64,000 bases of DNA, taken from assembly GCA_965287045.1 (NCBI GenBank), contig OZ336874.1:91512001-91576000 (forward strand), in the 5' to 3' direction. Within the stretch, counting starts at the first letter, position 1. Each line of letters begins with the position of its first letter. This document shows, in pieces, positions 25,757 to 61,880 of this stretch. The notes beneath the pieces were generated by a model. The model was not told the origin of the DNA and ran no database searches. It saw only the letters and a list, made by a program, of their open reading frames with translations. This DNA comes from Carcharhinus amblyrhynchos (lineage: Eukaryota). Both the position numbers and the translations under genes were made by a program.

Positions 25757-27000
25757 GTTCTGCAGTGGGTGTAGAACTCCGCATCCTTTTCTTCATAGCC
25801 CTGCAATTCCTTTCTCTTCAGATAATTATCCAATTCTCTTTTAAAGGCCTCAGTTGAATCTGCCTCCACCAGACTCTCAGCAAGTGCATTCCAGATCCTA
25901 ACCACCAACTTAAAAAAAATTCCCGTATTGCCATTGCTTCTTTGGCAATCATCTTTTATTGGTTTCCTGTATTTTTTGATCCTTCTGTTAATGGGAGCAG
26001 CATTGCTCTGTCTATTCAGCCACACTGTTCGTGATTTTGAATATCTCTATTAAACATCCTCTCAATCTTCTCTCCTTCAAGGAGAACAGCTCCAGCTTTT
26101 CCCAATCTATCCACATAAATTAAGTTTATAATCCCCCAAACTATTCTCAGGAATCCTTTCTGTAGCCCCCTCCAATAATTTCACAAGTTCCTGAAGTGTG
26201 TTGCTCAGAACTGGACACAATCTTTTAGTTGATTTTGTGTGGGAAATTAGTGTGAGAATTCCACAAGGTTGTAATACTCCAGAGGGTTGTGGAAGCTCAA
26301 TCATTGAGCATATTCAAGACTGAAATCAACTGTTTTCTGGATATTAATGAGATCAAGAGATATAGAAACAGTGTGTGTGTGTGAGGGTGGGGTGGGGGGA
26401 GAGGTGGTGGGTGAATGGAGAATGGCACCATGATCAGCCCTGATGTATTTGAATGGCAGAGCAGGCCCAGTGAACCCAACGGACTACTCTTACTCCTATC
26501 TTCTGATTATACTGGTTTTTTATAACTTCCTTGCTTTTGTACTCTTTGCCTCTATTTATAAAGCCCAGGATCCCATATACCTTTTTAACCACTTTCTCAA
26601 CATGCCCTGCCAACTTCAATGACTTGTGCACATATACCTCCAGGTCCCTTGGCTACTGCAACCCTGTCATTTCATATTATCTCTCCACATTCTTCCCATG
26701 AGTGTATGTTAAATTTCGTATGCACTTGTCTACGCTTTCCACCAGTCTCTGATCTCTTGAAATTCAACACTATCTTCCTCATAGTTTACAATAATTCCAA
26801 GTTTTGTGCCATCCATAAACTTTGAAATTGGGTCCTCAACAACTCAGGTCTAGGTCGTTAATATATGAAGAAACGGACAGTAACTGACCCTAAGGAACCA
26901 CACTATGTACCTTCCTCCAGCCCAAAAAATAACAGCCATTCACTAATACTGCTCTGTTTCCTGTCAGTCGCCCAATTTTATAGAAATTAAAGCTCCTAAA
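25757..27000 (-). mobile_element. CR1 fragments, mostly - strand, with a short + fragment at about 26265-26505
   Basis: VVRIWNALAESLVEADSTEAFKRELD and KVVKKVYGILGFINRG. Confidence 0.8.
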
Positions 27001-46385: not shown

Positions 46386-48135
46386 GGGCAGCAGGGTAGC
46401 ACAGTGGTTAGCATTGCTGCTTCACAGCTCCAGGGACCTAGGTTTGATTCCCGGCTTGGGTCATTGTCTGTGTGGAGTTTGCACATTCTCCTCGTGTCCG
46501 CGTGGGTTTCCTCCGGGTACTCCGGTTTCGTCCCACAGTCCAAAGGTGGCCATGCTAAAATTGCCCCTTAGTGTCCTGAGATACAAAGAACAAAGAACAA
46601 CCCAGCACGGGAAACAGGCCCATCGGCCCAACAAGCCCGCGCCGCCGCATCACCCTACACCTATTCTACCCTGCGTGTCTACGAATGGAACCCCTAACTT
46701 GCCAGATACAGGGGAGAATAGTGTCAATTTGGTAAAACCAATCAGCCTAAGAGCACATCTTTGGGGTGTGGGAGGAAACCGGAGCGCCCGGAGGAAACCC
46801 ACGCAACCACAGGGAGAATGCGCAAACTCCCACAGACACAGGCCCAAATCCATGTATCTGCACAGCTAGCAGTGCTAGTTACCGAACTGTTGCGGCGCCC
46901 GTCTACCGGTCCAGGATCAAGCACACACACCGACACGAAGTACTAGGCCACTCCCGGAACCACCAAGAGCAGCCCACGCACGACCCACCGTGTGCATGCC
47001 CCTCGTTTGACAACGAGGTGGACCTCCACCTGCGGAATAAAAGACAAAAACGTTAATCTTACAAATCTGCTTTTCCGGTGTCTCCCGAGGTTCTAACCTT
47101 ATTTAATAGCCCCTACCATAACCCTCCATCCTCGTTTCACTCATGTGTCTATCTAACTGAACCTTAAACGAGTCCAACGTTCCTGCCTCCACCACCCTAC
47201 TCGGTAGCGCGTTCCATACCCCCACAACTCTCTGCGTAAAGAACCTTCCTCTCACATCCAAATTATACCTCTCCCCCCTCACCCTTAAATCATGCCGTCT
47301 CGTATTTGTACCCAGTCTAGGGAGCAGTCTCTCACTATTGACTCTATCTACTCCCTTCAGTCTCTTATATACCTCTATCATGTCCCCCCTCAATCTCCGT
47401 CTTTCCAAGGAGAATAGTCCCAGTTTCTCCAACCTTTCCTCGTAACCCAGCCCCTCCATGCCAGGCAACATCCTGATAAACCTCCTCTGCACCCTTTCCA
47501 GAGACTCCACGTCCTTCCGGTAGTAAGGTGACCAGAACTGGACGCAGTACTCCAAATGCGGCCTAACCAACGTTCTATACAACTGAAGCATTAGATGGCA
47601 GCTTTTATACTCTATACCCCTTCCTATAAAGGCTAGCATTCCATAAGCCTTCCTAACAACCTTCTCCACTTGTGTCGCAACCTTCATGGATTTGTGAACC
47701 TGCACTCCCAGATCCCTCTGTATTTCTATACTCCTAATCTGTCTACCTTTTATCACATAGCTCCTCTCTGCATTATTCCTTCCAAAATGCATCACCTCGC
47801 ATTTGTCAGGATTAAATTCCATCTGCCACCTATCTGCCCAATGCACCAACCTATCTATATCCTGTTGTATCACCTGACAATCCCCTTCAGTACCCGCCAA
47901 CCCTGCCATCTTGGTGTCATCAGCAAACTTGCTGATCACACCACCTACGCTCTCTTCCAAGTCATTTATGTATACTACAAAGAGGAGAGGTCCCAGTACT
48001 GAGCCCTGCATAGGTTAGAGGGATTAGTGGGTGAATATGTAGGGATATGGAGATGGGGCTTGGGCGGGATTGTGGTCGGTGCAGACTCGATGGGCCCAAT
48101 GAGCTCTTTCTGCACTTTATGGTTTCTATGATTCT
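46386..48135 (+). mobile_element. V-SINE split in two (46386-46582 and 48008-48135) by an antisense CR1 insertion
   Basis: ...tagtgtcctgagat | gcataggttagagggattag... rejoins to the sequence seen intact at 62080-62115. Confidence 0.92.
46583..48007 (-). mobile_element. Young 5'-truncated CR1 LINE with uninterrupted ORF2 C-terminus and a 520 nt composite 3' UTR (copy A)
   Basis: About 300 codons open (QGSVLGPLLF...KFADDTK...RPHLEYCVQFWSP), stop at 47103-47105, (ttctttg)n tail at 46583-46600. Confidence 0.95.
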
Positions 48136-60567: not shown

Positions 60568-61547
60568 AGACGTGGAGACCCTGGAGAGAGTGCAGAGGAG
60601 GTTTACCAGGATGCTGCCTGGTATGGAAGAACTGGGCTATGAGGAAAGATCTAATAGAGGTATATAAGATTATGAAGGGTATAGATAAAGTAAACAGTGG
60701 TAAGCTTTTTCCTAGATTGGAAACGCACATTACGAGGGGCCACAGGCTTAGGGTAAGGGGGGTGAAGTATAATTCGGATGTTAGAGGGATGTTTTTCACA
60801 CAGAGGGTAGTGGGGGTATGGAATGCTCTGCCAAGCAAGGTGGTGGAGGCAGGCACGCTGGAGTTGTTTAAGAGTTACTTAGATAGGCACATGAGCGGGA
60901 TGGAGATGGAGGGATATAGGAGACTGTTTTAAATAAGGTTCAGGAGCTTGGGATGCCCCTGGAAATCAATTGATTCCTATGGACCTTCCAACGTATTTTC
61001 TGGCTCACTTGTTTTACTTTTGAGCTTCTGGGGATTCCCTTGAATGTTTGTATAAGGATGTGCATGGTATTGATGTTTTTCTCTTTTAATCCACAGGTGC
61101 TTCGGTCCGCCTTGTTGTCCAACAAGGGGCATACACGCGATGGGTCATACAAGGGCTGCTCTTGGTTGTTTCGAGAGTAGCCTAGTACTTCACATCGTTA
61201 GTGTACGCTTAAACTGGACCAGATGCTGGGCAACACGACAGCTCAGTGACTATCACTGTTTGCTGTGCAGACACATGGATTTGGGCCAGTGTCTGTGGGA
61301 GTTTTTGCATTCTCCCTGTGCTTGTGTGGGTTTTCTCCGGGTGCTCTGGTTTCCTCCCACACCCCAAAGATGTGCTGTTAGGCTGATTGGTGTTACAAAT
61401 TGTCCCTAAATTAGTCTTCCCTCAATGTGGAATGCCATAAGCATAGACAAGGGTCATGGGTGGAGGGGGGACTCATAATGTGAAAATGGCGGCATGGGCT
61501 TGTTGGGCCGAAGGGCCTGTTTCCCGTGCTGTGTTGTTCTTTGTTCT
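60568..61547 (+). mobile_element. 5'-truncated CR1 LINE with a 615 nt composite 3' UTR (copy B)
   Basis: ORF2 end DLIEVYKIMKG...FFTQRVVGVWNALP with stop at 60930-60932 and an internal deletion near 60650. (ttctttg)n tail. TSD TTAGTA at 60562-60567 and 61548-61553. Confidence 0.93.
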
Positions 61548-61880
61548 TTAGTACAAACCCCTTAGGCACTAGTGGAAATTTCCACCGATGCTGCATGTTA
61601 CCAAGGAATGTCCCTTTTACCAACTAAGTGACAGATACTGGGGAAATGAGGAGGCCATTGCTTGGCTTTAGATTTTGACATTCACTAAAATATAAAATAA
61701 CATGTACTGATAGAAATAGTGAGTAAAGAGCAAAATAGATTAGAAAGAACAGGAGCAATTAGGAAAGCAAAGATCAAGGAATGGGTCACACCCATGGTGG
61801 TAGTTCAAGTAGCAGACTGGTCATTTGGATTTGTGATGTTTTTGAGCATATGATAAATCAGGTGAGTGAGAAGGCTCTGA

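Follow-up and report, generated by a model that had tools for sequence, protein, structure and literature searches.

The 3' untranslated regions of LINEs are usually short recognition tails. CR1-clade LINEs with an esterase ORF1 have been surveyed (PMC13343379), and sharks and rays harbour a described pair made up of the HER1 LINE and the HE1 V-SINE (PMC3747384); in the portions of the CR1 survey available, the string 'splic' is absent and 'UTR' occurs once. Outside the CR1 clade, retroviral elements such as the constitutive transport element (CTE) of M-PMV override the retention of intron-containing RNA (PMC4829213, available in part), and an export element has been placed at the border of ORF2 and the 3' UTR of human L1, as cited in the accessible text of PMC3045867, according to which it is dispensable for the retrotransposition of a synthetic L1. 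Exon trapping and exonization by L1 and other transposable elements have also been described (PMC10901741, PMC2176070).

The lineage analysed here is like the CR1-clade elements and HER1 in having an SGNH-like (OSK) ORF1, an ORF2 with endonuclease and reverse transcriptase, repeated 5' units and a microsatellite end, and its tail resembles that of the free SINEs, as in the HER1/HE1 pair, the likeness to that pair being judged by anatomy. On the grounds of its anatomy, we presume that it belongs to the CR1 clade. Among the CR1 families listed from the genomic DNA examined, it stands alone in the composition of its 3' UTR, which is ~520-620 nt long and contains a 3' splice acceptor, a 117-nt RNA domain and a worn SINE, whereas the 3' UTRs of the other families listed measure ~50-100 nt and have none of the three.

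The window, by which we mean the whole 64,000-nucleotide stretch that was analysed, comes from a 2.9 Gb genome rich in CR1 LINEs and V-SINE-like repeats, presumably that of a shark or ray to judge by the repeats, and holds two copies of the domain, both in 5'-truncated members of this one lineage. In general, a variable spacer and the splice-acceptor motif separate the ORF2 stop from the 117-nt domain, after which there follow a worn tRNA-type SINE head and a V-like block, and then, beyond a second spacer, the CR1 tail, which ends in (TGTTCTT)n; 5' ends are staggered by truncation. In copy B, on the plus strand, the end of ORF2 (60569-60932, 5'-truncated and with an internal deletion) has its stop at 60930-60932, the worn SINE head, presumably HE1-like, covers 61228-61289, the central block, which we take to be V-SINE-like, covers 61290-61390 and finds ~80% matches at 10 or more places in the window that are free SINE copies, and the tail with its microsatellite end occupies 61488-61549. 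In copy A, which belongs to a young subfamily and lies on the minus strand, the C-terminal part of the reverse transcriptase is encoded at 47103-48006 (5'-truncated, with an open frame of ~300 codons), the SINE head and V-like block are at 46738-46900, and the tail and microsatellite end are at 46582-46646.

A full-length young member, L103, encodes an esterase-like ORF1 with a Pfam match to OSK (PF17182), which we take to represent an SGNH-like fold, and an ORF2 matching PF03372, PF14529 and PF00078, that is, an APE endonuclease and a reverse transcriptase. In full-length young copies, the start lies within a repeated promoter unit that has a TATA box, and the 5' UTR contains donors of the GTGAGT type at three sites, in 30, 23 and 13 of 30 copies. 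The units of this 5' UTR (L238-L267) are ~200 nt long and contain CCGGAAGT motifs, a GC box and the TATA box, and most full-length copies start ~25 nt after the TATA box of the preceding unit, a layout that we presume to be that of monomer-type LINE promoters. An apparent acceptor in the L103 5' UTR turned out to be a CpG change in a single copy.

The 117-nt domain is a real, selected and undescribed RNA structure. A sequence-only reading of the window had reported it at 61104-61220 on the plus strand (copy B) and at 46908-47024 on the minus strand (copy A), and both copies are indeed there. The helices which that reading had drawn (the closing one, the hairpin of 7 bp, the long arm and the apical hairpin of 12 bp) are the minimum free energy structure of both; in copy B, this amounts to a three-way junction with a P1 of 6 bp, a 7-bp hairpin P2, a P3 of ~33 bp in four helices and a linker of 5-6 nt, as judged from sequence, fold and the alignment of copies. 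The two copies fold with z scores of -5.86 and -6.05, with none of 200 shuffles folding as well, and their antisense strands are less stable (-43.4 vs -52.1 and -33.0 vs -64.3 kcal/mol), although the antisense of copy B still reaches a z of -5.27. Only two copies had been seen at that stage, but the domain exists in thousands: a pattern for the apical arm has 8,514 matches genome-wide against 0 for its reversed control, and a looser pattern for the whole domain has 5,585 against 14. From copies sampled by several patterns, the removal of 12 segmental duplicates left a set of 157, whose tree is ladder-like and was split by hand into 16 groups; a second set, of 207, was made without copies that lack a detectable tail or have duplicated flanks.

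These sets allow the finer points of the fold to be placed in the history of the lineage. The three differences between the window copies in the apical hairpin are G-U to Watson-Crick swaps, as had been noticed, and they are, in addition, differences between subfamilies. The segment UAGUACUUC, by contrast, had been called invariant but is present in only 138 of 207 copies, with UAGUG(C/U)UUC in its place in 36 of them, where pairing is still possible. As for the double change in the P2 hairpin, which it had been suggested might stem from two CpG deaminations, the pair is U-A in groups E and B, U-G in D and I, and C-G in A and C, so that an intermediate U-G state is observed. The greatest divergence from the group consensus is found in group E (6.2%, though the group is possibly mixed), and with E as the root each of the two steps would produce a CpG instead of destroying one. 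Decay does contribute in some copies, since a hand count at the hairpin site in the first 100 listed copies of the B type gave 45 A and 55 G. The flanks, finally, had been described as not alignable, and this is true of the spacer upstream, which varies in length and sequence, but not of the last ~30 nt before the domain, where a splice-acceptor motif is conserved, nor of the downstream side, where a nearly gap-free alignment continues into the SINE-derived block.

The working acceptor directly upstream is the best clue to the function of the fold. It consists of a branch-like motif, a pyrimidine tract and YAG, ending 5-10 nt before the 117-nt domain; in copy B it spans 61070-61096 (TTGAT, pyrimidine tract, CAG; exon start 61097), recognized by sequence and conservation with its use seen at family level, and in copy A it spans 47030-47056 on the minus strand (TTAAC, pyrimidine tract, CAG; exon start 47029). 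The pyrimidine tract is kept in 152 of 157 copies and YAG in 145 of those 152, at 5, 7, 8 or 10 nt before P1, and a branch-like NTRAY is found in 128 of the 145, whereas one subfamily reads TCGAT where the branch motif is expected. Although the nucleotides separating AG from P1 vary, the distance stays fixed and short. Two simple roles for the acceptor were considered and set aside. A mini-intron immediately after the ORF2 stop would need a donor, and the candidate is not kept (GGATCAG in group I1, GTTCAG or GTTCAT in B and D); a coding exon after the acceptor is incompatible with the 5-, 7-, 8- and 10-nt offsets and with indels of 1 and 3 nt, which break any frame.

That the acceptor works can be seen directly, as host exon ends are joined exactly to it in contigs of two presumed-RNA runs. 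Contigs of three such runs and of one large run of undefined kind were aligned to 46975-47085. Among the 24 of 62 loose ends listed, one contig each in runs X2 and X6, which are from other organisms, departs from the element at the C of the CAG in the copy A acceptor (position 47032); among the six rows listed for the large run, none ends there. Each loose string has one unique place in the genome, with one mismatch, and both places are exon ends in which CAG is followed by a GT donor, GTAAGA or GTACTT. Further loose ends among those listed run through an unspliced acceptor, so that both spliced and retained forms occur. Contigs aligned over the whole element had no joint at the acceptor, an alignment that is uninformative for repeat sequence. 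One of the two exons (G000:C7:35814049-35824500; L186, L189, L190), whose contig is from a related organism, starts with ATG, lies 10 kb before a GDSL-lipase-like exon (a weak Pfam match, E 0.0015) and has a sense copy of the element with an intact acceptor 3.5 kb into its intron; the join read in frame reaches a stop after 28 codons, and the GDSL-type esterase gene is, we presume, IAH1. The other exon, on C30, has no sense copy within 240 kb downstream, where both copies are antisense, so that the trapping copy is absent from the assembly; the run is from another organism. This is like the exonization of L1 and other transposable elements in that host donors are captured by sense copies in introns, which should shorten the mRNA of the host gene, but differs in that one strong 3' UTR acceptor is kept across the lineage in front of a conserved fold, instead of scattered cryptic sites.

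Whether the element also splices to its acceptor from its own donors was sought among retrocopies. Spliced retrocopies numbered none of nine matches in the young family (three with mutated acceptors, six plain truncations) and none of the 30 examined among 43 in older families (11 keeping upstream element sequence, 19 truncations), with patterns that are blind to the most upstream donor, and the 5' ends of the older families may differ; a third, mis-registered search, mostly of one subfamily, gave none among 100 listed of 745 matches. No match examined joined the L103 5' UTR to the acceptor. Sampled copies that reach upstream of the acceptor retain it, which indicates that the retrotransposing RNA is unspliced at this site; as new copies thus keep the acceptor, what gains from acceptor and fold must be either the unspliced RNA or a helper product.

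The reading that we favour, though tentatively and short of calling it probable, is that the fold serves the export or stabilisation of intron-retaining LINE RNA, or the control of its splicing. The fold would be a putative protein-binding cis element in the 3' UTR of this CR1 lineage; the element's own donors could reach the acceptor and excise ORF1 and ORF2 together, and the fold, acting like a retroviral transport element or damping the acceptor, might allow the full-length, intron-retaining RNA to be exported or stabilised rather than spliced or held in the nucleus. We liken it to an export element because the retroviral CTE (PMC4829213) and the L1 element (PMC3045867), as far as the available portions of these papers go, offer precedents: in each case a structured cis element sits just past the last ORF, and the replicating RNA leaves splice signals unused. 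It is tempting to go further and to see here a non-LTR retrotransposon with retrovirus-like RNA processing, in which 5' UTR donors and a selected 3' UTR acceptor would define a facultative intron holding both ORFs, the three-way-junction element would balance unspliced, replicating RNA against a short spliced non-coding RNA, and thousands of truncated copies would act as gene traps in shark introns; we consider this full scheme rather doubtful.

The best of the alternatives, which we nevertheless judge somewhat unlikely, is that ORF2p or ORF1p would bind the fold, alone or within a large folded UTR, to the benefit of template recognition, with the acceptor kept for some other reason or having arrived with captured sequence. 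The stretch from domain to tail is conserved throughout and folds in context, and because the V-like block, the worn head and the tail are even more conserved than the 117-nt domain, the fold may belong to a more extensive UTR structure that has to do with RNP assembly. LINEs of the stringent type use 3' stem-loops (PMC3747384, in the text accessible), and the failure to find an element-initiated splice among the retrocopies searched points the same way. It is harder to reconcile with template recognition that the domain lies ~320 nt from the tail, that sister CR1 families and free SINEs that have a similar tail are mobile although they lack it, and that the acceptor holds its short distance to P1 although the sequence between them changes. 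A different use of the same splice signals has to be weighed as well: the useful product could be the short spliced non-coding RNA itself (5' exon, domain, SINE block and tail), which would limit the element in the soma or divert dsRNA sensors or silencing by acting as a decoy. Donors near the start of the element and a working acceptor near its end are what this would require, no reading frame is kept after the acceptor, and for L1 the amount of full-length RNA is reportedly limited by cryptic splicing (PMC3045867, accessible portions). Such a spliced RNA would carry the tail, though, and should leave retrocopies, of which there were none among those searched, and we regard the proposal as unlikely.

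It could also be asked whether the fold does anything at all, or is a captured host exon or hairpin carried as passive cargo, its pairs surviving because a G-U-rich stem tolerates transitions and because the structure was chosen after the sequences had been seen. An answer comes from comparing non-CpG changes at paired sites on internal branches, which represent the active lineage, with those on tips, which are mostly post-insertion. Counted by parsimony on one tree, with a few alignment artefacts included, pairs kept and broken number 17:1 on the lineage and 67:47 on the tips in the 157-copy set (p=0.003), and 18:2 against 103:85 after insertion in the 207-copy set (p=0.002). The cargo explanation gains from the fact that 55-59% of neutral changes also keep the pair, but the contrast remains significant in the 207 copies when A>G and C>T, the classes unable to break pairs, are left out (8:2 vs 42:84, p=0.005); restricted to G>A and T>C, it does not reach significance (8:1 vs 42:28, p=0.14). 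The charge of hindsight is met by a structure set on the oldest group alone, of which 39-43 of 43 pairs are still standard pairs in all 16 groups, down to the youngest. The domain has also diverged about half as far as fourfold-degenerate sites of ORF2 (21 of 116 sites vs 19 of 50 between groups A1 and B2, 19 of 116 vs 21 of 42 between A1 and E), and along the lineage it has accumulated 0.26 changes per site where the 3' spacer has 1.26.

Covariation gives a more divided picture. Covariation among consensuses had been named as the test on which the fold should stand or fall, and its two-sided form is weak and not significant, a point for the passive-cargo explanation: 3 of 40 pairs, a number equalled or exceeded in 130 of 500 shuffles, and 1 of 34 pairs in RNAalifold. 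Of the alignment cells, 95.1% are paired (15 of 500 shuffles). What supports the fold are one-sided changes between G-U and Watson-Crick pairs. Misalignment of the 3' strand of P1 led to the exclusion of this helix when pairs were counted, and 7 of the 47 copies picked were left out of alignment A2, three as redundant A copies and the others for deletions or near-identity. Taken with the fold z scores and the pairing within groups, the lineage-tip contrast supports the three-way-junction cis element proposed by the sequence-only reading, and we have high confidence in the structural part alone, namely that the 117-nt domain folds as RNA into a three-way junction and that selection maintains it; that it is mere cargo appears very improbable to us. 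An excess of A>G at paired tip sites (13.5 vs 3.0 per 1000) at one point looked like an ADAR signature but is gone in densely sampled subfamilies (4/601 vs 3/773).

The domain has no evident relatives. As the sequence-only reading had anticipated, no catalytic core of a known ribozyme was found: Rfam has no model or core match among its ribozymes (hammerhead, HDV-like, twister, pistol, hatchet), and no known family covers the domain at gathering thresholds. A suspected likeness to a pestivirus IRES or to 5S rRNA is not confirmed by Rfam, where viral IRES, 5S rRNA and snRNA gave no match. That the domain is a self-cleaving ribozyme, an IRES-like element or a pri-miRNA-like hairpin is thus highly improbable, for while it has a three-way junction with a nearly invariant internal loop and a P3 near the stem length of Microprocessor substrates, its Rfam matches at E<=10 are chance ones to sRNAs and lncRNAs, hammerhead motifs occur in 0 of 207 copies, cleavage at the domain would part ORF2 from the tail, no downstream reading frame is kept, and an apical loop of 3-5 nt with a paired 5' flank should be poor for Microprocessor. 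The M-PMV CTE is a symmetric rod whose loop motif AAGACA binds NXF1; the domain, in contrast, is a three-way junction, has this motif in 0 of 207 copies and has no Rfam match, and the features tested place it outside the CTE family. Viral contigs yielded 0 exact pattern matches, and searches for remote homologues with a covariance model over 484,654 bases and with nhmmer over 1,277,918 bases, each <0.05% of the genome, returned family members only. The domain and acceptor are not described in the accessible parts of PMC13343379, PMC3747384, PMC5786205 and PMC6887750, and no description was found in the literature searched.

A lineage that has remained active through many subfamilies while carrying a working acceptor and an undescribed fold amounts to a natural variant series for tests of LINE RNA export, splicing and recognition. 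With >8,000 copies in the genome, it may also matter to the host, as sense insertions in introns can truncate host mRNAs in the manner of the trapped first exon of the GDSL-type esterase gene.

Several smaller observations were made along the way. Elsewhere in the window, downstream of 25795-25917 on the minus strand, the end of a CR1-like ORF precedes a T-rich unit of ~130 nt that is present in duplicate and includes a small hairpin-like motif; this is probably where a different LINE family has its tail. A pair of the elements occurs four times at G000:C1:5.32-5.52 Mb (L120-L127), where a segment of ~55-75 kb has been duplicated in tandem. Three more hairpins are predicted within the worn SINE head and the first part of the V-like block (61228-61330 on the plus strand and 46800-46900 on the minus strand), segments in which the lineage shows less change than in the 117-nt domain itself. 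In group C, the youngest subfamily (L147-L164), both hairpin loops or stems are one base shorter, and the branch motif has become the near-consensus ACTAAT, which group D1 gained independently.
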